Source of the DNA: a virus
Taxonomy: Duplodnaviria; Heunggongvirae; Uroviricota; Caudoviricetes
Direction: 5' to 3' (one strand)
Length of the DNA stretch: 64,000 nucleotides
Virus record (IMG/VR): IMGVR_UViG_2721755710_000007
Span: 1 to 64,000 of that record
In this document: positions 2,327 to 34,720 of the stretch, in pieces
Layout of the letters: each line of letters starts with the position of its first letter
Numbering within the stretch: position 1 is the first letter of the stretch
The notes under the pieces: generated by a model
Seen by the model: only the letters and a program-made list of their open reading frames with translations
Database searches by the model: none
What the model was told of the DNA's origin: nothing
Program-made: the position numbers and the translations under genes

Positions 2327-5300
2327 CTATATTTTTCCGCCTACGCCTTTAAACTTCTCAATAAACGAGACGATTTTCTGGAAAACTGCCTGTTTTTTCG
2401 TTTTATATTGCGGATTTAACGGACTAAGTTTTGGTAATGTTTCGTTTAATTCTGTGCCATTTTCGGTGGCATATTCGCGTTTTAAAGACGTGCGAATATA
2501 GCGTTTTGCTGCATCTTCATTGAGATTTTCTTCTTTTATCAATGCTTCTGCTTCACGTTGCTGTTCGCGTTGAGCAAACGTAAAGAATGCGTCAATGATG
2601 CTGGCTTTGTCCGGTAAATCATCCAGGTTCGTTTGCTGAATAAAATCGACCACCAGGCCCTCTTTAGCACGGTTCCCTAGGCTTGAACGAATTAAGCGTT
2701 TGACCTCTTCGATCATTTCGCCCTTGCCTTTATTTTGTCTGTTGTGTTCGAAAATCAGTCCAAGGATATAATCCAGGTTTATTTCCTGAGACTTCAGCAA
2801 ATCGACCTCAAAAACTACGTCATCCCAGTCAGTGGTTGATTTCTCTTTTTTCTCAGCTTCTTTCTCACGGCGCTGCCAGTCGCGAATATCGTTATAGGCA
2901 GAACGATAATCCTGAATCTTGCGATCAGCAGGGAGACGAATTGTTTGCAATTTAGCGAACTTTTCATCATCCACATAATGCTCTGCTTTGAATTTTTCTA
3001 CCGCAACAGGATCGCTAAGATCGATTTGTTGCAGGGCTTTTAGCGTGGCAAATTCATCATAGTTTTGCAGGATGTTCTCGGCACGCAGGTATTCGCCAAA
3101 CAGTTTAACGAAGTCTTTCTTCTCTTTTTCACTTTCAATACTGGTAGGGTCAGGGAACCGTTGTTCCAGTTCTGAAACTACTGTCATAAAGCCGCGTTTA
3201 GCTTCACCAGTAGCAGCATCAGTAAAGCCTTCCATATACTCTGTATAACTCTTTTCTAACACCACATTTTTGGTGTTTTTGTCACCAAACAGCGTTATGG
3301 CATCAATAGTTGAGCGTTCCAGATCCCGGAAAGTGACGATATTACCGAAGGTTTTAGTAGCGTCATAAATGCGGTTGGTGCGGGAAAATGCCTGCATCAG
3401 GCCGTGAAAACGCAAGTTTTTATCGACGAATAGCGTGTTCAATGTTGGAGCATCGAAGCCGGTTAAAAACATCCCCACGACGATTAACAAGTCAACATCC
3501 TGATTTTTAACCCGCTGAGCCAGGTCCCGATAGTAGTTCTGAAAACCCTTGCTATCAGTACTGAAATTCATTTGAAAATGGTCGTTATATTCACGAATTG
3601 CAGCATCCAGAAACTCTTTAGCACTGCTGTCCATTGCGCTGGTATCAAAAGTTTCATCGGAAATTTCACCAATGGCATTTTGTTCTTCATTAGCGGCAAA
3701 GGAGAAGATTGTCGCAACACGCAGCGGTTTATAGGTAGCCGATTTATTAGCGGCTTCTTCTTGTAACCGTTTAAACGTCGCATAATAGGCTTTCGCGGCA
3801 TCCACGCTGCTCACTGCCAGCATGGCATTAAAGCCTTTGGAGCCTGGGAAGGTACGGTGGGTTTTCTGGCGGAAGTTGTTCAGGATATATTGCGTGATTT
3901 CCTGAATACGCATGGGATGAAGAAACGCCTGCTGATTTTCAGCCGCACTCAGTTTTTTCTCGTCAGTTTCTGTCTCTAAAGACTTAAACTGTGGCCGCAC
4001 ATCGTTGTAGTCCACCTTGAATTTGAGCACTTTTTCGTCACGAATCGCATCGGTAATTACATACGAATGCAATTCACGACCAAATACGCTGGCGGTTGTT
4101 TCTGAGCCTAAGGCGTTTTCCGGGAAAATAGGGGTGCCGGTAAAACCAAACTGATAATAGCGTTTGAATTTCTTCTTCAGGTTTTTCTGCGCTTCTCCAA
4201 ACTGGCTGCGGTGGCATTCATCAAATATAAACACCACTTGCTGATTATATACAGGCAGGTCGCTTTCTGCTTTCATCAGATTATTGAGTTTCTGAATAGT
4301 AGTGACGATAATTTTGTTATCGTCCTTATCCAGATTTCGTTTAAGGCCTGCGGTATTTTCCGAGCCGTTGACGCTGTCTGGCGAAAAACGCTGATATTCC
4401 TTCATGGTCTGGTAATCGAGGTCTTTCCTGTCGACCACAAAGAAGACTTTATCAATAAAGTCCAGCTCTGTTGCCAGACGCGCGGCTTTAAAGCTGGTGA
4501 GGGTTTTACCAGAACCGGTAGTGTGCCAGATATACCCACCGCTTTCCGGTTTTGACCAGTTCTTCGCTGTAAAGGAACTCTTAATTTTCCACAGAATGCG
4601 CTCGGTGGCGGCAATCTGGTACGGTCGCATCACCAGTAGCGTCTGACTACTGTCAAAAACGCTGTAGTTCACCAGAACATTCAGCAGAGTATGTTTCTGG
4701 AAAAAGGTAGCGGTAAAGTCTTTGAGGTCTTTAATCAGCGTGTTGTCTGATTTCGCCCAATTCATGGTGAAGTCAAAACTGTTTTTATCGCGCTTTGTCG
4801 TGTTGGCAAAATAACGGGTATCGGTGCCGTTAGAAATGACAAACAGTTGCAGATACTTAAACAGGGAATTTTCGCTGTTAAAACTCTCTTTACTGTAACG
4901 ATGTATCTGGTTGAAAGCCTCACGAATCGCCACCCCGCGTTTTTTTAGTTCGATTTGCACCAGCGGTAAACCATTAACCAGGATCGTGACGTCATAACGA
5001 TTAGCATGAGAACCCGTCTGTTCAAACTGCTGGATAATCTGCACCTTATTGCGCATGAGATTCTTTTTATCTATCAAATAGATGTTCTCAAGTCGCTCGT
5101 CATCAAAAATAAAGTCGCAAATATAGTCGATATGGATTTTACGGGTCTTATCCAGAATGCCATCGCTCGGGTTGTCCAGATACTGCTCCGTGAAACGCCG
5201 CCACTCGCTGTCATTAAACACCACACCATTGAGGCTCTGAAGCTGTTGTCGAACATTGGCCAGCATCGCCGACTGAGATTTTACGGATATAAATTCATAG

Positions 5301-5443
5301 CCCTGATTTCGCAGGTCCTGAATCAGTTCACGTTCCAGGTCCGATTCGCTCTGGTAGCTGTCGCCTGTTGGCTCAGCTTTGATGTACTTATCAAGAACGA
5401 TAAAGTTATTGGATTCAGCAATGGTGTGTGTCTGATGAGTCAT
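2327..5443 (-). CDS. hsdR: Type I restriction enzyme R subunit (1038 aa)
   Basis: Helicase motifs (TTGSGKT, DECH box); size matches Type IC HsdR; downstream of hsdM-hsdS. Confidence 0.85.
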
Positions 5444-5564
5444 AGCGCATCCTTTGTGCCGTCTGGCAAGGGCCGGAAGGGGGGTAATGGTGACTTCCGG
5501 CGCGTAAAAAATAGTCTATATACTGACCGGGTGTTAAGGTGGTCCGATCGGTAGCAATGATCAA

Positions 5565-6164
5565 TTAATTACTGACAGTTTCAGGTTTCGGGAAACTGAA
5601 CAGTAAATCACGGTAGTATTCGTATTGTTTCTGGCGCAACTCGATTTCACGCGGAAGACCTTCGGTGATGGAGTTAGTCAGGGTGTCGAAATTATCCAGA
5701 ATCCGAACGATTTCAGACTGGATGGCAAGGGATTTTTCCGGATTATCCGGGCAGGGGATTGGGATTTTTTTTTGAGAATAATTACTAATCCATTGGCGTT
5801 TATGGTCTCCCTCTGCGAATTCACTTGGTAATGTATTGAGCCAATAGTAAACATATTTCAGTAAGGTTTTATTATCATCACATGATGTAACCATTTTCAT
5901 AGCCGATGATTTTGCCTTAAAGTCAAAATCCACCCATTTATTAGCGGTGGTGAAATCATCAAAAATTATTACAGGTGCCTTTGATGCCTGATAAATACCA
6001 TGAGTCTCATTTGTGTATCCAAGAATAAATGTTTTTCCGGCAGTAAGAACCGGGATGGTATATGTGTCGTGATAATCTTTTGCTTTTACCAAATACTTTG
6101 TTGGCTGTTCATATTTGGTTATTTCCCCCAATGGCAACCACTCAACCTCAACCCCATCCAGCAA
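5565..6164 (-). CDS. hsdS: Type I specificity subunit, half-size with one target-recognition domain (199 aa)
   Basis: 24 bp downstream of hsdM; C-terminal conserved HsdS helix (...ILDNFDTLTNSITEGLPREIELRQKQYEYYRDLLF); only one TRD fits. Confidence 0.7.
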   Translation of the reverse strand: MLDGVEVEWLPLGEITKYEQPTKYLVKAKDYHDTYTIPVLTAGKTFILGYTNETHGIYQASKAPVIIFDDFTTANKWVDFDFKAKSSAMKMVTSCDDNKTLLKYVYYWLNTLPSEFAEGDHKRQWISNYSQKKIPIPCPDNPEKSLAIQSEIVRILDNFDTLTNSITEGLPREIELRQKQYEYYRDLLFSFPKPETVSN

Positions 6165-6188
6165 TTTTTCCAGATAAACTTAACTCGC

Positions 6189-7751
6189 TCATTTTTGCAC
6201 CTCGCAGCCTTCAATTTCAGCCACAATCGCATCAATATCTTTACGCAACTGGTCGATTTTGCTGACCGTGGTTTTCAGCTCAGCATTCAGCTCAGCAATA
6301 TCGATAATTTCGCGGTTATCTTTCGCTTCCACATAGCTGCTCACCGACAGGTTATAGTCATTAGCAACAACGGTCTCAAACGCGACAGATTTCGCCAGAT
6401 GAGCAACATCTTCCTTGCTGGCAAATACCTGCATAATCTGTTCGATATGGGTATCGGTCAGGATATTGTTGTTAGTCTCTTTTTTGAACAGTTCGCTGGC
6501 GTCAATAAACTGAACGTTGGTATCCGTTTTATGTTTGGACAGAACCAGAATGTTTACTGCAATGGTGGTGCCAAAGAACAGGTTCGGTGCCAGTGAAATT
6601 ACGGTTTCGACATAGTTATTGTCAATCAGATACTGACGGATTTTCTGCTCCGCGCCGCCACGGTAAAAAATACCCGGGAAGCAAACAATCGCAGCACGAC
6701 CTTTGGCAGAAAGATAGTTCAGCGCATGTAGTACAAAGGCGAAGTCAGCTTTTGATTTGGGGGCCAGAACGCCAGCCGGGGCAAAACGCTCATCGTTAAT
6801 CAGTGTCGGGTCATCGCTGCCAATCCATTTCACCGAATACGGCGGGTTAGAAACGATGGCATCAAACGGTTTTTCATCTCTGAAGTGCGGCTCAGTCAGT
6901 GTATTACCCAGCCTGATATCAAACTTGTCGTAGTTGATGTTGTGCAAAAACATGTTCATACGCGCCAGATTATAGGTCGTATGGTTGATTTCCTGACCGA
7001 AAAAGCCTTCTTCGATGATATGGTTATCAAACTGCTTTTTAGCCTGCAACAACAGTGAGCCGGAACCCGCTGCCGGGTCGTAGATTTTGTTAACGTTGGT
7101 CTGCCCGTGCATAGCCAGTTGTGCAATCAGCCTGGAGACGTGCTGCGGTGTAAAGAACTCACCGCCTGACTTACCAGCATTCGCCGCATAGTTAGAAATC
7201 AGGAACTCATAGGCATCGCCGAACAGGTCAATCTGATGTTCGTTAAAGTCGCCAAGCTTTAAGCCTTCAACCCCTTTCAGGACCGCAGCCAGGCGGGCAT
7301 TTTTATCCTTAACGGTGTTACCCAGGCGGTTACTGGTGGTATCGAAATCAGCAAACAGACCTTTGATGTCTGCTTCTGAAGGATAACCGTAAGCAGAACT
7401 TTCGATAGCAACGAAGATGCTGTTTAAATCTGCATTCAGTCTGTCATTGGTATTTGCTTTCGCCGCTACGTTGCAGAAAAGCTGACTGGGGTAGATGAAG
7501 TAGCCTTTAGTTTTGATGGCATCGTCTTTAATATCATCAGTAATTACGCTGTCATCCAGTTTCGCATAACAGATACTGTCATCACCGGCTTCAATATAGC
7601 TGGAAAAATTTTCGCTGATAAAACGGTAGAAAAGTGCGCCCAGAACGTATTGCTTAAAATCCCATCCATCGACCGAACCCCTGACATCGTTAGCAATTTG
7701 CCAGATTTGACGATGAAGCTCTGCACGTTGTTGAATACTTGTCATTTTCAT
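6189..7751 (-). CDS. hsdM: Type I N6-adenine DNA methyltransferase M subunit (520 aa)
   Basis: NPPY catalytic motif ([10 protein letters not shown]), AdoMet-binding region, conserved HsdM N-terminus. Confidence 0.85.
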
Positions 7752-16179: not shown

Positions 16180-17211
16180 ATGTCCAATTTACTGACCGTA
16201 CACCAAAATTTTCCTGCATTGCCGGTCGATGCAACGAGTGATGAGGTTCGCAAGAACCTGATGGACATGTTCAGGGATCGCCAGGCGTTTTCTGAGCATA
16301 CCTGGAAAATGCTTCTGTCCGTTTGCCGGTCATGGGCGGCATGGTGCAAGTTGAATAACCGGAAATGGTTTCCCGCAGAACCTGAAGATGTTCGCGATTA
16401 TCTTCTATATCTTCAGGCGCGCGGTCTGGCAGTAAAAACTATCCAGCAACATTTGGGCCAGCTAAACATGCTTCATCGTCGGTCCGGGCTGCCGCGACCA
16501 AGTGACAGCAATGCTGTTTCACTGGTTATGCGGCGGATCCGAAAAGAAAACGTTGATGCCGGTGAACGTGCAAAACAGGCACTAGCGTTCGAACGCACTG
16601 ATTTCGACCAGGTTCGTTCACTCATGGAAAATAGCGATCGCTGCCAGGATATACGTAATCTGGCATTTCTGGGGATTGCTTATAACACCCTGTTACGTAT
16701 AGCCGAAATTGCCAGGATCAGGGTTAAAGATATCTCACGTACTGACGGTGGGAGAATGTTAATCCATATTGGCAGAACGAAAACGCTGGTTAGCACCGCA
16801 GGTGTAGAGAAGGCACTTAGCCTAGGGGTAACTAAACTGGTCGAGCGATGGATTTCTGTCTCTGGTGTGGCTGATGATCCGAATAACTACTTGTTTTGCC
16901 GGGTCAGAAAAAATGGTGTTGCCTCGCCATCACCCACCAGCCAGCTATCAACTCGCGCCCTGGAAGGGATTTTTGAAGCAACTCACCGATTGATTTACGG
17001 GGCTAAGGATGACTCTGGCCAGAGGTACCTGGCCTGGTCTGGACACAGTGCCCGTGTCGGAGCCGCGCGAGATATGGCCCGTGCCGGAGTTTCAATACCG
17101 GAGATCATGCAAGCTGGTGGCTGGACCAACGTAAATATTGTCATGAACTATATCCGTAACCTGGATAGTGAAACAGGGGCAATGGTGCGCCTGCTGGAAG
17201 ATGGCGATTAG
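16180..17211 (+). CDS. cre: Cre tyrosine recombinase (343 aa)
   Basis: Sequence recognised as Cre (MSNLLTVHQN...LEDGD); about 420 bp downstream of loxP. Confidence 0.97.
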   Translation: MSNLLTVHQNFPALPVDATSDEVRKNLMDMFRDRQAFSEHTWKMLLSVCRSWAAWCKLNNRKWFPAEPEDVRDYLLYLQARGLAVKTIQQHLGQLNMLHRRSGLPRPSDSNAVSLVMRRIRKENVDAGERAKQALAFERTDFDQVRSLMENSDRCQDIRNLAFLGIAYNTLLRIAEIARIRVKDISRTDGGRMLIHIGRTKTLVSTAGVEKALSLGVTKLVERWISVSGVADDPNNYLFCRVRKNGVASPSPTSQLSTRALEGIFEATHRLIYGAKDDSGQRYLAWSGHSARVGAARDMARAGVSIPEIMQAGGWTNVNIVMNYIRNLDSETGAMVRLLEDGD

Positions 17212-17820: not shown

Positions 17821-18381
17821 ATGAAAACAATCGAACAAAAAATTGAACAGTGCCGCAAGTGGCAGAAGGCAGCCAGAGAACGAGCGATCGCTCGGCAACG
17901 GGAGAAGTTGGCTGATCCGGTCTGGCGAGAATCTCAATATCAGAAAATGCGGGATACTATCGACCGCCGTATCGCTAAACAGAAAGAACGCCCACTAACC
18001 AGCAAAACGCGGAAAATCGCGGTAAAAATAAAATCTCGTGGCTTGAAGGGACGAACACCGACGGCAGAGGAACGGCGCATAGCCAATGCTCTTGGCGCTC
18101 TCCCCTGCATTGCCTGCTATATGCATGGAGTAATATCTGAAGAGGTGTCTCTGCACCATATCTCCGGTCGTACCGCGCCTGGTTGTCACAATAAGCAATT
18201 GCCCCTTTGTAGATGGCACCACCAGCATGCAGCACCGGCTGAAGTAAGAGAAAAATACCCCTGGCTGGTCCCTGTTCATGCCGATGGTGTGGTTGGAGGC
18301 AAGAAAGAATTCACCCTGCTGAACAAGTCAGAGATGGAGTTGCTGGCTGACGCCTATGAGATGGCAAATATCATGCACTAA
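17821..18381 (+). CDS. ref: Ref recombination enhancement function, HNH endonuclease (186 aa)
   Basis: 186-aa ORF with Cys/His HNH-like motifs (CIACYMHG...HHISGR...CRWHH); position after cre as in P1. Confidence 0.8.
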   Translation: MKTIEQKIEQCRKWQKAARERAIARQREKLADPVWRESQYQKMRDTIDRRIAKQKERPLTSKTRKIAVKIKSRGLKGRTPTAEERRIANALGALPCIACYMHGVISEEVSLHHISGRTAPGCHNKQLPLCRWHHQHAAPAEVREKYPWLVPVHADGVVGGKKEFTLLNKSEMELLADAYEMANIMH

Positions 18382-18427
18382 TATATTTATTATTTTTAAA
18401 ATATTGGGGCGCGTATGCCCCTGTTTG

Positions 18428-18982
18428 TTAATGTTTTTTGTCCTCTTCCAGACGAGCAACTTTTAATTGTTTGTCCGTGATAGTAAGCAATGCAACCCCT
18501 TCTTTTTCGTACAAATAACCAGCTCCATTAATCAATAATACAAACCGATCCTTTCCTCGGAATACTTCATAATACTTACCAGCACCACAGGTTTTAGTTT
18601 CAATGCAGTCCAAACCAGAGATTGCAGCCTTATCAAAGATATGGTCCTTCGTCGCAACAGGTTTCCCATACTCTTTTGTAAGCATTTCATCTAATTGCAT
18701 AAAGGTATATTTGCCAACTTTTGTTGTCATGCTCAACTCAACCTTGCCATTAATCAACATTCCTGTGGTATGTGGTTCCTGAGCGTCAGGTGACGATTTA
18801 TCGTATAATGCAAAAAGTTCTATGTCTGGAGTCCGTTTTTCAAAAGTGGCTTCGTCCTGTTCTTCAAGATAACTCTTGTCTTCACCGATAAGTGAGAGTT
18901 TATCAATCTCTGACTGGTTACACCCTGTTAACATTAGAGCCATAGCAATAGAAGCGATGATGTTGAAACTACGATTTTTCAT
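18428..18982 (-). CDS. lipoprotein, 184 aa (position of P1 mat)
   Basis: Signal peptide with lipobox LTGC. Confidence 0.5.
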   Translation of the reverse strand: MKNRSFNIIASIAMALMLTGCNQSEIDKLSLIGEDKSYLEEQDEATFEKRTPDIELFALYDKSSPDAQEPHTTGMLINGKVELSMTTKVGKYTFMQLDEMLTKEYGKPVATKDHIFDKAAISGLDCIETKTCGAGKYYEVFRGKDRFVLLINGAGYLYEKEGVALLTITDKQLKVARLEEDKKH

Positions 18983-19237
18983 TAATCAATCTCCGTGATT
19001 TGTGGTCATCAAGACCGGACGCAGGAATAGCCCAGACTCTACTACTGCAACCATATAAAAAATAATAGAAATATTGGTTTATAGCATTTTTACAGATAAA
19101 AAAATTGACATCTGACAAATTACTTCTGCCAAAATCACATCAAGCCCGGTACGGATGGATCCCTTTTCAAATATTCCATGGACGGCACAGTCTGAGTACC
19201 GGGCGCTACCTTCAGTTGTATTGCTAAGCCGCCGCTG

Positions 19238-19909
19238 GTGGCTTTTCTTTTTTGTAGGGGCGCTATGGATAAGAAAATATGCGTTGTTTCGATGAGCGTC
19301 GGCAAACCGGCGTCAATGACTGCTGCATGGATCAACAACGAGCTGATAATGGCTGATCGGACCAGCTACCCTGAACGCCGCCGCGATATGGAACTCCAGC
19401 TGCTGCGCGAATTGCGAGAAAAAGAGGAAAAGGGTTTTATCGTGCTGGTGGAAGAGGAAAACAGCTTTATTACCGGTCGAGTTGGCCAGCGTGTAAGGTT
19501 GCGCGATCCCTTCATGAACGGCAGGCCGGTACTAATTGAAGCAATGCAGATTTACAAGGAGTTGGAACGCCAGAAAGCGATCAAGTTACCGCGCAAGGAA
19601 TCCGGCAAATACATCCTCCACCAAAGCATCTTCGATTCCGAACACGATAAAAAAGGCGATGAGTTTTTCAACATCAACTGGAGCGAGATAACGACAGAGC
19701 ATGTTCTAACGTTGTTATGCTGCTTCGCAACAGAATACAACAACGTGGTAAGCGCAGACTACATCAGGACAATGACAAACACCGTTACTAAACAAGACAA
19801 CGAATATTCACCATATGAGCTATTTGTAAATATGATAAAAGCATTTTATCGGATGGAGCTCGCTAAAGTTCCTCAAGGTAAATTAACAGGTAAGGATAAC
19901 ATCTTTTAA
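19238..19909 (+). CDS. hypothetical protein (223 aa)
   Basis: ORF at the start of AT-rich cargo; no recognisable motif. Confidence 0.35.
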   Translation: MAFLFCRGAMDKKICVVSMSVGKPASMTAAWINNELIMADRTSYPERRRDMELQLLRELREKEEKGFIVLVEEENSFITGRVGQRVRLRDPFMNGRPVLIEAMQIYKELERQKAIKLPRKESGKYILHQSIFDSEHDKKGDEFFNINWSEITTEHVLTLLCCFATEYNNVVSADYIRTMTNTVTKQDNEYSPYELFVNMIKAFYRMELAKVPQGKLTGKDNIF

Positions 19910-19962
19910 GCACAGTAATAAGGTGCTTAGATGTTCATATCAATATCCTAACTCTCTGCATC

Positions 19963-20652
19963 TCATAAATCTGATAGCCACTTACTATCTATGGACTCAA
20001 TCTCCGTCAGCGGAATTGATGGGAAAAAATATCCCTGAGCGCCCCATAGCCCTATCCCTTTTGATAACTTATGACAATCAATGTTTTCGACGCCTTCAGC
20101 GATGATATTCGGACATAACTTTTTTAAATTGCTAATAATGACATCAAAATGAGGCTTAATCATATGCTCTTGAAAAAATGACTTATCAAGTTTTATTGCA
20201 TGATATTTATTTTTAATTAATGCTTTCATGGTGGCGTTACCACTTCCAAAATCATCAAGCCAAACATTATCTGTCAAAGTCAGTAGAAAGGATATGACGT
20301 AATCCTCATCGCTTAAATCAGGATAGTTTTCTGATATCTCAATCGCTATAAATTTATTGTTTATTAGTAGTTCTTGAATTTGTTTATTGCCATATATATA
20401 TAAACAGGTATCATAATCTACATTGATAGAGCATAATATATTATGGCATTCAAAAAAACACTTATATTTGATTATTGTGTTAAGTTGAGATTTTAGCAAG
20501 TTAATCTTCATCTTGCTTGTAAATATACCTAATACTTTCTGAGTAGAAAGAATAGCCCCCTCGTTGGAATAAAATCTGCTCAACACTTCCACTGCTATCA
20601 ACTTGTTAGTGCTTGTGGAAATGATTGGTTCTACTATGTAGATAACTTCCAT
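19963..20652 (-). CDS. stand-alone EAL-domain protein, putative c-di-GMP phosphodiesterase (229 aa)
   Basis: EAL signature residues: EVLSR, IEISE, DDFGSG, KLDKSF, AEGVE, QGYFF. Confidence 0.7.
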   Translation of the reverse strand: MEVIYIVEPIISTSTNKLIAVEVLSRFYSNEGAILSTQKVLGIFTSKMKINLLKSQLNTIIKYKCFFECHNILCSINVDYDTCLYIYGNKQIQELLINNKFIAIEISENYPDLSDEDYVISFLLTLTDNVWLDDFGSGNATMKALIKNKYHAIKLDKSFFQEHMIKPHFDVIISNLKKLCPNIIAEGVENIDCHKLSKGIGLWGAQGYFFPSIPLTEIESIDSKWLSDL

Positions 20653-20873
20653 GCTCCCACCCTCTATTTTTAAATTGGTTGGCTTTAGCAGATAAAGTGC
20701 CCTTTATATTTACAGGGGTTACACACTATGTCAATTTATTTATCTGTAGTGAAATTGATAAAAATTCAATAATAAAAGCAGCAACTGTGACACAAATCAA
20801 TATTTTTATTTTTTGCACAACTTCTTGATTTCAGTGCTGCTGTATCTCTATTCTTGTTCAAAGCCTCTTTAGA

Positions 20874-21600
20874 ATGGTGGTAGCTATGTCAGGAGTCTGT
20901 TACTTCATCCTAATAAAGAAACCGATAAATTTTCAATTTCTTAAGGATTTCTTAATATTAAATTATGGTGATGTGCTGTTGCTTAAACATTCTGAACGCG
21001 AATTCTTACAAACCTATTCAGATAAATATATCGAATTCGAACTTAATGATAGTGCCGTAAGAAACTATTTATCTTGTCACAATCACCAAGGGAAGCAACT
21101 TCTGGATAAATGCCCACATTTGCTAAAAAAGTCTTTTGCTTATCCTGATTTATTAATCAGGATGATCGATAATATAAGTGACCAGAATCATATACATCCT
21201 GATTTTAAGGATGCTTTAACTTTTTCATTACTTTCAATTTTTAGTGATGTTGACAACCTTAGAGCTTTTCTTAAATCTGGTATGCCTACTTTCTCAGGGA
21301 AAGTACGCAGCATATTTCTTTCAGATGTATCTAAACATTGGAAACTAAGAGACTTAACTGATTATCTATACATAGTGAGAGTTTAATAAAGAAAAAACTC
21401 TTATTAGAAAACACCTCCTTCAGTAAGTTATTACTTGATACACAAATGGCTTTTGCTATTAAATTACTAAAGCAAAACCGCCCCCTCAAACAAGTATCAG
21501 AAAGTTGTGGTTTTAGTAGCATATCGTACTTTGTGTGCCTATTTAGGCAGTATTATAATTGTACACCATGTGAATATGTAAAACATCAGTTATCATCTGG
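20874..21600 (+). pseudogene. AraC-family regulator, disrupted (170-aa ORF plus out-of-frame C-terminal HTH)
   Basis: ORF 20874-21386 ends in TAA TAA; AraC-type HTH (...LLDTQMAFAIKLLKQNRPLKQVSESCGFSSISYFVCLFRQYYNCTPCEYVK) follows in another frame next to an A-run. Confidence 0.5.
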
Positions 21601-21645
21601 GAAATAAGATGCATTTATCTCCCAGATAATATTGTAATATTAAAC

Positions 21646-21894
21646 TCAGTCAGCATTTAGTAGCAGAGCATTATCTATGATGATCTGCTCCCATTCTTCG
21701 AATGCCCGGTCGCGGACGCCCTGGGGAACGCTGTTTGTTTTGAAATCGACGACCGTCCGCCATTTCCCGTCCGGACGGTACATGCGCAGAGCTTTACTTC
21801 CCCCTTCCCTGCGCACCTCAACGTTATGCTTGTCAGCAAACTCTTGTAATGCTCGTAGCGTCCCATGCTTTACTGTGTAGTATCGCTTTTTCAA
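21646..21894 (-). CDS. hypothetical protein (82 aa)
   Basis: Last gene of a three-gene minus-strand cluster; overlaps the upstream gene by 4 bp. Confidence 0.4.
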   Translation of the reverse strand: MKKRYYTVKHGTLRALQEFADKHNVEVRREGGSKALRMYRPDGKWRTVVDFKTNSVPQGVRDRAFEEWEQIIIDNALLLNAD

Positions 21895-22331
21895 GTTTTC
21901 TCTCCAGCCTGTGCCAAGGCTTCAACTTCCAAATCGTAAGACTCAAACTCATAGTCCTGGTCGTCAACTTCTTCAGGGACTGGCAGTAAATGCCAGGCTG
22001 AGTATATCTGACCATTATCAAAACGCTCCTGGCTGTAGAGCGTCGCGGCTATGAGTGTTAGCGCCGGGCGGTCATAACGGTAAAATTTGCGAACGTCACG
22101 GTCAACGAGACGACCGAAATTACCATAACCGCGCTCCAGTAATAATTTTTTAATTTCCGGCCAGTATGGGCCATAGCTGCGGTACAGGCGGGGATTTTTC
22201 AGTAATCGCCCGCGTAGCCCTGACAGGAAGAAATCAACGTATTCGTCTTCTGTCTTTCCTAACAACGCTGTACGGAGTACCGCCTCAAGATATGTTTTAT
22301 TCGGTTTTATTGTATCAGATAGTGTGGCCAT
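21891..22331 (-). CDS. hypothetical protein (146 aa)
   Basis: Middle gene of the cluster. Confidence 0.45.
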   Translation of the reverse strand: MATLSDTIKPNKTYLEAVLRTALLGKTEDEYVDFFLSGLRGRLLKNPRLYRSYGPYWPEIKKLLLERGYGNFGRLVDRDVRKFYRYDRPALTLIAATLYSQERFDNGQIYSAWHLLPVPEEVDDQDYEFESYDLEVEALAQAGEKT

Positions 22332-22364
22332 ATTATGCGACGCCCGGCGAACCGGGCGCTCCTG

Positions 22365-33177: not shown

Positions 33178-33455
33178 GTGACCTCCTGATGTGAAATCAC
33201 TATACCGAAGTGGTTTTTATTTTTTTTCACAAACAGGACTTTTTTCAGTGATTTTTTTCTGAGAATTATGAGGGGCGTGTCGTTGGTGCGATGCATACCG
33301 ATAGTGAATAACACCAGATGAGCTCGGGAACGGCATAGCGGGGTGTACTTATGTTCGGCAGAAAAGTAGCTTTTTCTGCAATGGGTATTCCTGATCCGGT
33401 GATTTGAAAAGTGCTGTTTTACTTACTAAGTTATACATATATCTAGTGCCACTTT

Positions 33456-33612
33456 TTAATCAAAAGTGACCCTAGGTTTTTTGCGCATAGTGCCACTTTT
33501 TAAAAAAGTGACCCTATGTCCTGTCTACATAGGGTCACTTTTCACAAAGAAGTGACCCTATGTCGAGGCTCCATAGGGCCACTTTTCAGCAAAAAGTGAC
33601 CCTATGTAATAG
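33456..33612. repeat. array of four tandem palindromic units (core AAAAGTGACCCTATGT / ACATAGGGTCACTTTT)
   Basis: Units begin near 33456, 33489, 33527, 33571; each has 12-14 bp inverted arms around a short spacer. Confidence 0.8.
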
Positions 33613-34189
33613 CCATTGTTAATCAATCGGAAAAATATTCATGCTAGCTCGCTCTTATCGCTAAGGTTATTGCTGCTTTCTGCCGATAACAGTGCAAGTT
33701 TTGCGATTTTTTTAAGCGCTTCACAGTTCGTTAGCAAGCTCAGTTTTTTTTGATAAAATTCTGGTCAGTTTGTTTAAAAAGTGTTACAAGTAAGGCGAAT
33801 GGTTGAATGGTTAGTTTTAAGACTCAAATCGGCAGTATTAAAATTCCAAAAGTAGCTTTTCATACTTCAAAAAACCAAACTTTAATTTCATGTAGAAGAG
33901 TTGTACTATTGTATTGACTCAAGGACAATCCGACATGTCAGAATCAGATAACATAACGCGTAACTATTACGTACCGAGGTTTCGATTATTCGTAGTTACC
34001 GTGCATTCCTAATGTTATTGCCTATCCATGATCTTCTTCGTATCAATCAGGGTCTCCACTCTTGCAACGCCGTCTATTTGGAGACGGATTTGGGACAATG
34101 ACTGATAATGCATTTGAAGTTGAAACTCGTCCGGGAAGTTTCCTCGTTCCACGTTCTTTAGGCAAAGAGATTTCCTGGGATAATTTTTT

Positions 34190-34720
34190 ATGGCTGTTGT
34201 CGATGGTGACACTAACGTTATTCGAGAATATGACAGTGACGATGCTGACTTCGGTATTTACAATGCTGGGGAAAAAGTTACTTTACTGTGTGGCCGGGAA
34301 GACTTTTATAATCCGACAAAAATTCAGCAGTTACGCTCTAAGTGTGTAGATATACAAAATGATTACTTTATTCAAATCTTCTTTATGTCAATGCTTGCAC
34401 CTGAGTTTGTCAGCATATTTTTTGGATTAAAGCCTGCCACCGCAGATGCAATAAAAGATGTTGGCGTTTCATCACTTAAAGCAATTAACGATGTTGTTCT
34501 CTTTCCGCGAACAATTGCCTTTACGCCAGGACTGGGGGATGATAGCACTACGTTAAAATCTAAAGTATTCGCCAGGGCATACGAATTATCTGCCGACATT
34601 CGTTTGGGTAAAGTTAGTGATGACTTAATGGAACTACTGCGTTACGACACTATGTTTACGTGTCACCGTCAGGATGTGTTTAACTCATTAGCAAATAAAG
34701 TGCTCTTGAAGGATTATTGA
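34190..34720 (+). CDS. hypothetical protein, 176 aa (an upstream out-of-frame ORF 34062-34349 may be a frameshifted N-terminus)
   Basis: ORF divergent from the two-gene operon; ends 7 bp before IS1 copy 3. Confidence 0.4.
   Translation: MAVVDGDTNVIREYDSDDADFGIYNAGEKVTLLCGREDFYNPTKIQQLRSKCVDIQNDYFIQIFFMSMLAPEFVSIFFGLKPATADAIKDVGVSSLKAINDVVLFPRTIAFTPGLGDDSTTLKSKVFARAYELSADIRLGKVSDDLMELLRYDTMFTCHRQDVFNSLANKVLLKDY

Follow-up and report, generated by a model that had tools for sequence, protein, structure and literature searches.

A stand-alone EAL-domain protein with a complete active site, predicted to hydrolyse c-di-GMP, beside a frameshifted AraC-family regulator gene in a P1-like phage-plasmid

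Does a single EAL domain carried by a P1-type phage-plasmid act as an enzyme on cyclic diguanylate (c-di-GMP), or as an antagonist of flagellar gene expression? The question is raised by a stretch of 64,000 nucleotides, positions 1 to 64,000 of the IMG/VR record IMGVR_UViG_2721755710_000007 (Caudoviricetes), which we refer to as the window. Between the P1 genes mat and lxc it carries a gene for a 229-aa EAL-domain protein and, divergent from it, a broken gene for an AraC-family regulator. An earlier reading of the DNA letters, the original prediction, had proposed a stand-alone c-di-GMP phosphodiesterase next to a disrupted regulator. Based on our analysis, an active stand-alone phosphodiesterase is still the best reading of the EAL protein, with a probability of roughly 60%, because the clade to which the protein belongs keeps all catalytic residues and its own gene evolves under purifying selection (dN/dS about 0.13).

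The EAL protein matched the Pfam profile EAL (PF00563) with 65.3 bits, at a gathering threshold of 31.3, over its residues 8–210 and profile positions 18–233 of 236; no second Pfam domain, neither a sensor nor a GGDEF domain, was found in the 229 residues. All the motifs that had been read from the translation are present, i.e., E22-V-L-S-R26, N77, E105-I-S-E108, D133-D134-F-G-S-G, K154-L-D156, E186-G-V-E189 and Q206-G-Y, and they hold up in alignment. Catalytic completeness was scored at 12 canonical catalytic and metal-binding positions in an alignment of 119 stand-alone EAL proteins. The window protein retains 12/12 (E22, R26, N77, E105, E108, D133, D134, K154, D156, E186, E189 and Q206), and every member of its clade scores the same, in contrast to PdeH (10/12), SfaY (10/12), STM1697 (8/12) and YdiV (5/12). 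The degenerate active site of the YdiV and STM1697 type was not seen in the window protein. The catalytic residues do not vary, or hardly so, across 13 family members with identities as low as 26%. E108 aligns with E136 of PdeH, the residue exchanged in the standard inactive control mutant E136A.

Between P1-borne alleles, the ratio of non-synonymous to synonymous substitution rates (dN/dS) of the EAL gene was 0.12–0.16 at a synonymous divergence (dS) of 0.3–0.6, and by this measure the gene is under purifying selection. An AlphaFold2 model built from the 13 family members gave a TIM-barrel-like fold with a predicted local distance difference test score (pLDDT) of 91.7 and a predicted template modelling score (pTM) of 0.89. 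Loop 6, whose canonical form DFG-T/A-GYSS is required for dimerisation and activity, reads DDFGSGNATMKAL in the window protein: DFG is retained, and GNAT stands in the place of GYSS, as it does in STM1697 and YdiV; the reportedly active SfaY has GSGNAG. Two motif variants of the clade, 'EP' for 'QP' near the N-terminus ('FEP') and 'DDFGSGNA' in loop 6, are also found in SfaY.

The best matches of the protein in a sequence search of the PDB were STM1697 (E 1.5e-27) and YdiV/CdgR (4.6e-18), with active EAL proteins following from 3e-8 (YahA/PdeL); this ranking favours YdiV and STM1697, since PdeH has no solved structure among those searched. The blastp scores were 110 bits for STM1697 (29% identity), 79 for YdiV (24.5%), 72 for PdeH (25%) and 67 for SfaY (24%). 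The predicted fold was likewise nearest to YdiV, with a template modelling (TM) score of 0.88 and a root-mean-square deviation (rmsd) of 1.8 Å, and to STM1697 (TM 0.84–0.91), compared with a TM of about 0.77–0.82 and an rmsd above 3 Å for active EAL proteins. STM1697 and YdiV neither bind nor cleave c-di-GMP, and repress flagellar genes via FlhD binding (PMC5622320; PMC10333796). It is conceivable that the window protein does the same, binding FlhD of the FlhD4C2 complex as STM1697 and YdiV (RflP) do and shutting off flagellar expression with or without hydrolysis, which would make the lysogen less motile and less flagellated. We regard this as unlikely, even though both rankings point to it, one phage record calls the gene ydiV, and distant homologues stand at the ends of fimbrial operons. 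The precedent of PapX and SfaX makes repression of motility plausible for a gene in the latter position.

The kinship itself was examined in a HMMER scan of 1.84 billion representative sequences, which returned 90 relatives at E values up to 1e-10; 76 of the 78 best matches (E below about 3e-12) have fewer than 300 aa, the size of single-domain proteins. In a distance-based neighbour-joining tree, which has no support values, the window clade contains P1-borne alleles, IncFII-borne alleles (65–69% identity) and two proteins from virulence regions (46–49%). It lies within the broad EAL-only radiation that also produced STM1697 and YdiV, these two being separate degenerate offshoots among catalytically complete proteins, and PdeH and SfaY are more distant from it. 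This placement is compatible with FlhD binding; however, the proven FlhD binders have all lost catalytic residues, and the window clade keeps 12/12 under purifying selection. Such retention speaks against a role in FlhD binding alone, because FlhD binding would not require catalytic residues.

The residues through which STM1697 contacts FlhD are kept in part. We compared 11 contact positions (V115, L116, L136, V147, F160, K167, L172, L173, K175, H176 and Y180; PMC5622320), of which only two are identical in the window protein (F160, as F159, and K167, as K166). About five are conservatively replaced (L136, V147, L172, L173 and Y180), and four are lost (V115, L116, K175, now S, and H176, now N). 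Two central contacts are thus kept or conservatively exchanged, F159 and I172 (for L173), but F159 says little because it is conserved across EAL domains generally, and positions 171, 174 and 175 vary within the clade, position 171 being V, E, G or D. In an alignment read by hand, the key YdiV contacts F155, F168, F181 and A184 (PMC5622320) correspond to I146, F159, an alignment gap and V171. This partial retention, together with the variability within the clade, would if anything favour an enzyme.

STM1697 (PDB 5HXG), the closest sequence match with a solved structure, has the same compact single-domain fold as the window protein and the same GxGNAT-type loop 6; it has lost the equivalents of R26, E105, D133 and E186, all kept in the window protein, and is chromosomal in Salmonella, whereas the window gene is on a phage-plasmid. 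YdiV (RflP, STM1344; PDB 3TLQ and 4ES4), the best structural match, is a stand-alone EAL-like protein of the same size. PdeH (YhjH) is a single EAL domain with catalytic residues and would be the functional analogue under the preferred explanation, and its NCBIfam model (PRK11596) gave the best score, 93 bits. The window protein is nevertheless not a PdeH orthologue, since 93 bits is below the model cut-off of 190; the gene for PdeH belongs to the core chromosome and to the flagellar regulon, and the protein lies in a different branch of the tree. SfaY, encoded at the end of the S-fimbrial operon of extraintestinal pathogenic Escherichia coli, is a horizontally acquired stand-alone EAL protein of comparable length that shares the 'FEP' and 'LDDFGSGNA' variants and is reported as an active phosphodiesterase (PMC6385356). 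Unlike the window protein, SfaY lacks the equivalents of R26 and D156 and has no AraC-family partner.

With its one domain, its length of 229 aa and its clustering with EAL-only proteins, the window protein is an uncharacterised addition to the known stand-alone EAL subclass (the YhjH, YdiV and STM1697 group). El Mouali et al., in 2017, reportedly recognised the enterobacterial EAL-only proteins as a subclass of their own, in which close Yersinia members are either an enzyme (YE2225) or FlhD-interacting (YE1324); the tree described above agrees with this. As the closest relative of STM1697 and YdiV found here with a full active site, the window protein is a test case for an enzyme origin of these FlhD-binding proteins, and this kinship is its point of specialist interest.

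The second gene of the cassette encodes an AraC/XylS-family regulator. An intact allele matched the NCBIfam model of YdeO (NF007407) with 153.3 bits over residues 1–233 of 240 (E 8e-45) and that of GadX with 99 bits; since 153.3 bits falls well short of the equivalog cut-off (348), the intact regulator is a relative of YdeO, not YdeO itself. After YdeO, the next most similar proteins are GadX, HilD, Rns and CsvR, and PDB matches include the DNA-binding domain of GadX (E 1e-20) and, across both domains, Rns and CsvR (E 1e-18). Members of this YdeO/GadX/HilD/Rns/CsvR subgroup are AT-rich and mostly activate horizontally acquired genes. The window regulator gene resembles YdeO, GadX, Rns and CsvR in being AT-rich, in coding for about 240 aa and in lying on mobile DNA; unlike them, its copy is frameshifted and without a DNA-binding domain. 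Some sources label the fragment YdeO. The labels 'YdiV' and 'YdeO', copied from the nearest characterised relatives, are wrong for both genes.

The regulator gene had been described as split by stop codons and a frame change near an A-run. The gene is indeed disrupted, but by one 1-bp deletion and one premature stop, and the deletion lies 14 nt upstream of the run. The lost base is the bracketed G in CTATACAT[G]AGTGAG. The N-terminal part ends at the premature stop after 166–170 aa, while the original frame, open from 21362, resumes without further stops to 21607. Because the frame breaks at codon 164, ahead of the first helix-turn-helix (HTH), the product of the pseudogene would be without a DNA-binding domain. 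Only the second HTH is left as a 53-aa open reading frame (ORF) at 21446–21607. Pfam HTH_AraC and HTH_18 match this C-terminal part of the pseudogene; intact alleles carry a double HTH (PF12833 and PF00165), which the window copy does not hold as one product. Related elements restore the frame: 240-aa alleles are intact in the phage vB_EcoM-Ro157c2YLVW (Ro157c2YLVW) and in loci L005, L025 and L026, and between divergent alleles the dN/dS of the regulator is 0.06–0.11. In the repaired frame, three substitutions (T130K, R187Q and A232V, at window positions 21273, 21443 and 21578) are specific to the window and fall on positions invariant in four intact alleles, which is consistent with relaxed constraint after inactivation.

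Programmed frameshifting or transcriptional slippage was considered and rejected. The two frames overlap only at 21362–21386 (TTATCTATACATAGTGAGAGTTTAA), with no slippery heptamer or homopolymer, and slippage on the A-run (AAAGAAAAAA) cannot restore the frame because the run lies after the stop codon. A sequencing error was rejected as well, since 81 independent plasmid records of PLSDB share the 71 nt that surround the deletion at 100% identity and the exact truncated product of 166 aa occurs on at least 1000 contigs of a 15-billion-protein collection. A 170-aa version is found there on 607 contigs, and intact 240-aa alleles of the same 90% cluster on 38, 16 and 6 contigs. When the missing G was put back into the window sequence, no plasmid matched it exactly. 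Because intact alleles differ by nearby single-nucleotide polymorphisms, the L005 allele served for counting intact copies: 20 plasmids contain its 72-mer unchanged, and about 20 others contain it with substitutions. In plasmid p02B17002_B, with 100% identity to the window from 19900 to 21650, RefSeq likewise calls the gene 'frameshifted'. By these counts the broken regulator is the majority state, in about two thirds of plasmid copies, inherited in a successful plasmid lineage and no assembly error.

The two genes form an accessory cassette of P1-like phage-plasmids, placed in the mat-lxc slot where P1 has the EcoP1I res-mod genes. Under the phosphodiesterase reading, the cytoplasmic single-domain enzyme would hydrolyse c-di-GMP to pGpG. 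Expression in the lysogen would lower c-di-GMP; the cells should then make less of the biofilm matrix of curli and cellulose, and flagellar rotation should be freed from its c-di-GMP brake, a lysogenic conversion of the motile/sessile switch. The divergent YdeO/GadX/Rns-type regulator would most likely be the dedicated activator of the AT-rich cassette. The shared 1-bp deletion removes the DNA-binding domain of this regulator and leaves the EAL gene intact without its own regulator; expression of the EAL gene would then be low or dependent on host factors. Enzymatic activity, direction of regulation and phenotype are all predictions from sequence here. As the closest characterised relatives are antagonists of FlhD4C2, an effect on motility could also take a route other than c-di-GMP. 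With an active enzyme, the motile/biofilm decision of the host would be altered by a transmissible phage-plasmid, which is relevant to how the host colonises and persists. Descriptions of c-di-GMP genes on phages are few (review PMC10333796).

The cassette is widespread. A 1.75-kb module comprising it was found in 148 PLSDB plasmids, 145 of these from Escherichia. Of 5426 complete E. coli genomes, 145 carry it, with 147 plasmid locations and 6 chromosomal ones; one chromosomal copy lies within an integrated P1-like element. The carrier plasmids are almost always P1-like, and many come from poultry, livestock and clinical isolates. The cassette is also present in isolated phages (Ro157c2YLVW and OP279344), and missing from P1 itself and many of its relatives. 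As accessory cargo it is fairly ordinary, being common on plasmids of E. coli and already carrying database annotations. In Salmonella phage SJ1 (L003, OQ595196.1), positions 5004–5693 encode an EAL protein with 98.7% identity to that of the window, annotated as 'ydiV, putative anti-FlhC(2)FlhD(4) factor', a name that appears to be copied from the nearest characterised relative; an insertion sequence (IS), IS1, and Tn21 mer genes occupy the expected place of the AraC-family gene.

Given a broken activator, the cassette could be dead cargo in this element, the AT-rich EAL gene being silent, e.g., repressed by H-NS, and just a passenger of a successful plasmid lineage, with no effect on host or phage. 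The pseudogene with its three lineage-specific substitutions fits this, and so does the dispensability of the cassette for the element, which follows from its absence in P1 and many relatives. Other copies are disrupted too. In Ro157c2YLVW, one base lost in an A6 run (TTTAAAAAA-TTATG, L002 about 1790) shifts the frame of the EAL gene and truncates the protein ahead of EGVE and QG, with the 240-aa regulator intact, a reciprocal decay; OP279344 has a 21-bp in-frame deletion in the first HTH region of the regulator; and the matched stretch of some plasmids contains IS1, IS3 or IS5 transposase genes, which split or shorten the match. Neither is there a promoter signal above chance. Set against this, the EAL ORF is intact in essentially all plasmids with the frameshifted regulator and annotated as a coding sequence in every match listed, its 90% identity cluster has 1040 member sequences, with full-length alleles on 656 and 51 contigs, and the dN/dS reported above is a long-term one. 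The host paralogues YdeO and GadX might also replace the regulator. On balance, we consider dead cargo rather doubtful.

Several observations weigh against an active phosphodiesterase. The nearest characterised proteins, by sequence and by fold, are non-enzymatic; the loop 6 stretch GSGNATMKAL is closer to STM1697 and YdiV than to the canonical GTGYSS; and 65 bits is a weak match to the general profile for an EAL domain. The closest allele pair, the window and L005, differs by 5 non-synonymous changes and 1 synonymous change, numbers too small for an interpretation, which show no constraint in the recent lineage. With the regulator broken, the EAL gene may be poorly expressed in this element, and the regulator is a presumed activator by its family only. 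The disruptions in Ro157c2YLVW and by IS elements belong here as well: the cassette is decaying in several lineages. A literature search returned no biochemical or phenotypic data for the EAL protein or close relatives, and none of the papers searched tied P1-like elements to an EAL protein.

The genes are separated by a divergent intergenic region that presumably holds both promoters. An alignment of six alleles revealed a block at about 20783–20830 (AACTGTGACACAAATCAATATTTTTATTTTTTGCACAACTTCTTGATTTC) that is kept even in the IncFII-borne variant. A promoter scan gave 8 promoter-like sites against 9.5 expected from shuffling, and we claim no promoter because the scan is not above the shuffled expectation. 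The divergent pair is retained in the diverged P1-like alleles of L025 and L026, and on IncFII plasmids (L006, L007), at 67% protein identity, beside repA and a ParE/RelB module. More distant relatives of the EAL protein are found in three settings: at the end of a pap-like chaperone-usher operon that adjoins genes for a serine protease autotransporter of Enterobacteriaceae (SPATE) and haemolysin; beside a SPATE autotransporter on a plasmid fragment; and beside a fimbrial operon in Pantoea. A regulator homologue of 58% identity adjoins K88-type fimbrial genes on IncFII plasmids. The fimbrial-operon link is common to SfaY and the nearer homologues of the window protein. These neighbourhoods suggest that the cassette was recruited as a regulatory pair from the gene pool of fimbriae and virulence plasmids.

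The distant homologues of cassette genes near fimbrial and virulence genes, on virulence plasmids or islands, have the coordinates 6001–6711 (L008), 6001–6798 (L009) and 6001–6711 (L017). A further regulator homologue, of 49% identity, was located at 6001–6708 of L021–L024, a chromosomal E. coli locus, about 5 kb from genes for a hybrid sensor kinase and a GerE-type response regulator (EvgS/EvgA-like domains) and from a MotA-like gene.

The surroundings of the cassette agree with the phage-plasmid setting and the AT-rich cargo of the original prediction. The order cre, c8, ref, mat, cargo, lxc, ulx, darB is that of P1, nucleotide identity to P1 is 94–98% on either side of the cargo (blastn against NC_005856), and in the nearly identical plasmid p02B17002_B repA and parAB follow farther along; synteny and high identity on both flanks place the backbone with Punavirus. 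Homology to P1 stops at window position 19774 (P1 3336) and restarts at 21650 (P1 9754), at the stop codon of lxc. The GC content is 32.3% for 19910–21645 compared with 46.3% for the window. The cargo had been taken to begin at 19238, which is an upstream GTG of the mat ORF and hence backbone; it begins at 19775. The segment consists of a mosaic 3' part of mat, the EAL gene, the stretch between the divergent genes and the pseudogene of the regulator, the final 135 bp of mat (19775–19909) being part of the exchange and 95–98% identical in other cassette-bearing elements. Coordinates are collected in Table 1.

Table 1. Features of the mat-lxc cargo slot and its P1-like flanks (window coordinates)
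Feature	Position	Strand	Basis or remark
Cre recombinase	16180-17211		P1-order backbone
ref	17821-18381		P1-order backbone
mat (P1 maturation control)	19265-19909	+	left flank of cargo slot
Cargo segment	19775..21649	.	replaces P1 3337-9753 res-mod region; P1 homology gap
Stand-alone EAL-domain protein, 229 aa, predicted c-di-GMP phosphodiesterase	19963..20652	-	ORF, Pfam, residues, AlphaFold2 model
Divergent intergenic region, 33% GC	20653..20885	.	alignment of six alleles
AraC/XylS-family regulator gene (YdeO/GadX/Rns-like), pseudogene; 240 aa if intact	20886..21607	+	ORFs, Pfam, homologues
1-bp deletion site (G lost)	21373..21374	+	alignment with OP279344 and Ro157c2YLVW; premature TAA 21384-21386
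Inverted repeat, 17-bp stem, terminator-like	21591..21631	.	terminator scan; between convergent AraC-family gene and lxc
lxc (modulator of C1 repressor)	21646-21894	-	right flank of cargo slot
ulx	21891-22331		P1-order backbone; darB remnant next

In P1 the same slot holds 6.4 kb with res and mod, mod being interrupted by IS5, and in the window 1.9 kb of unrelated DNA. According to a survey of such elements, res-mod is one of eight low-GC regions that vary among P1-like elements (PMC9603915). The window cargo shares with the EcoP1I region its slot and low GC content, and differs in its genes and function, with no restriction or modification domain. The slot of SJ46 and 673R5 contains RelA/SpoT-family genes. 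In OP279344.1 (L001, 'Escherichia phage P1 isolate del res del mod') the cassette, at 3525–5150, replaces res and mod. A transposon-like insertion was rejected for the window cargo, as the flanks have no direct or inverted repeats. No Rfam match, including to a c-di-GMP riboswitch, was found at E up to 1 in 18300–22400. The inverted repeat between the convergent genes may act as a terminator.

This location is what speaks for a function in defence or counter-defence, in which the cassette would alter c-di-GMP-dependent or flagellar phage receptors (superinfection exclusion) or destroy a cyclic-dinucleotide immune signal: the slot has type III restriction in P1 and RelA/SpoT-family genes elsewhere, and the neighbours ulx and darB are anti-restriction genes. 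Infection by phage N4 requires a c-di-GMP-dependent exopolysaccharide, and some phages require flagella. However, neither the EAL protein nor an intact AraC-family allele matched any defence-system model of PADLOC-DB, the PHROG families holding both proteins have no assigned function, and the pair is found on IncFII plasmids, its relatives having fimbrial and virulence genes as neighbours and not lying in defence islands. To our knowledge, EAL enzymes are specific for c-di-GMP, and we know of no established role of c-di-GMP as an anti-phage signal in E. coli. A defence role seems most improbable. The earlier suggestion of interference with cyclic-nucleotide signalling, if taken to mean phage defence, finds no support, with no PADLOC match and no evidence for substrates other than c-di-GMP.

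A more speculative picture would join the two activities. The window protein could be a living intermediate between enzyme and regulator in the STM1697/YdiV lineage, an active phosphodiesterase that already binds FlhD, through which a P1-type prophage resets flagella and the c-di-GMP-dependent surface and so shields its host from flagellotropic and exopolysaccharide-dependent phages; the repeated loss of the regulator would then be an adaptive rewiring of its expression and not decay. We consider this combination quite improbable.

Other parts of the window also depart from P1. A 680-bp insertion between ref and mat (18400–19079, GC 38.6%), absent from P1, contains an ORF on the minus strand (18428–18982) for a 184-aa protein with a lipoprotein-type signal (…LMLTGCNQ), which belongs to PHROG 15156, of unknown function, and has no Pfam, NCBIfam or PADLOC match. 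At about 22365–34700, darB is reduced to a 643-aa remnant (2255 aa in P1) and followed by an IS-rich insertion that, by comparison with p02B17002_B, contains a RepA4 fragment, a Phd/YefM-RelE toxin-antitoxin pair, a 1165-aa autotransporter, IS3 and IS1 copies and MobI(A/C), and that truncates a lytic-transglycosylase gene as well. The element may have lost its full competence as a phage. The closest plasmid, L028 (NZ_JBVWFT010000002.1), is 99.95–100% identical outside two segments missing from the window, at the junctions 31936/31937 and 34726/34727. One segment, L028 24220–29614, measures about 5.4 kb and carries IS1 and IS66 genes and a phytase-like esterase gene; the second is 20549–21429 of that record.

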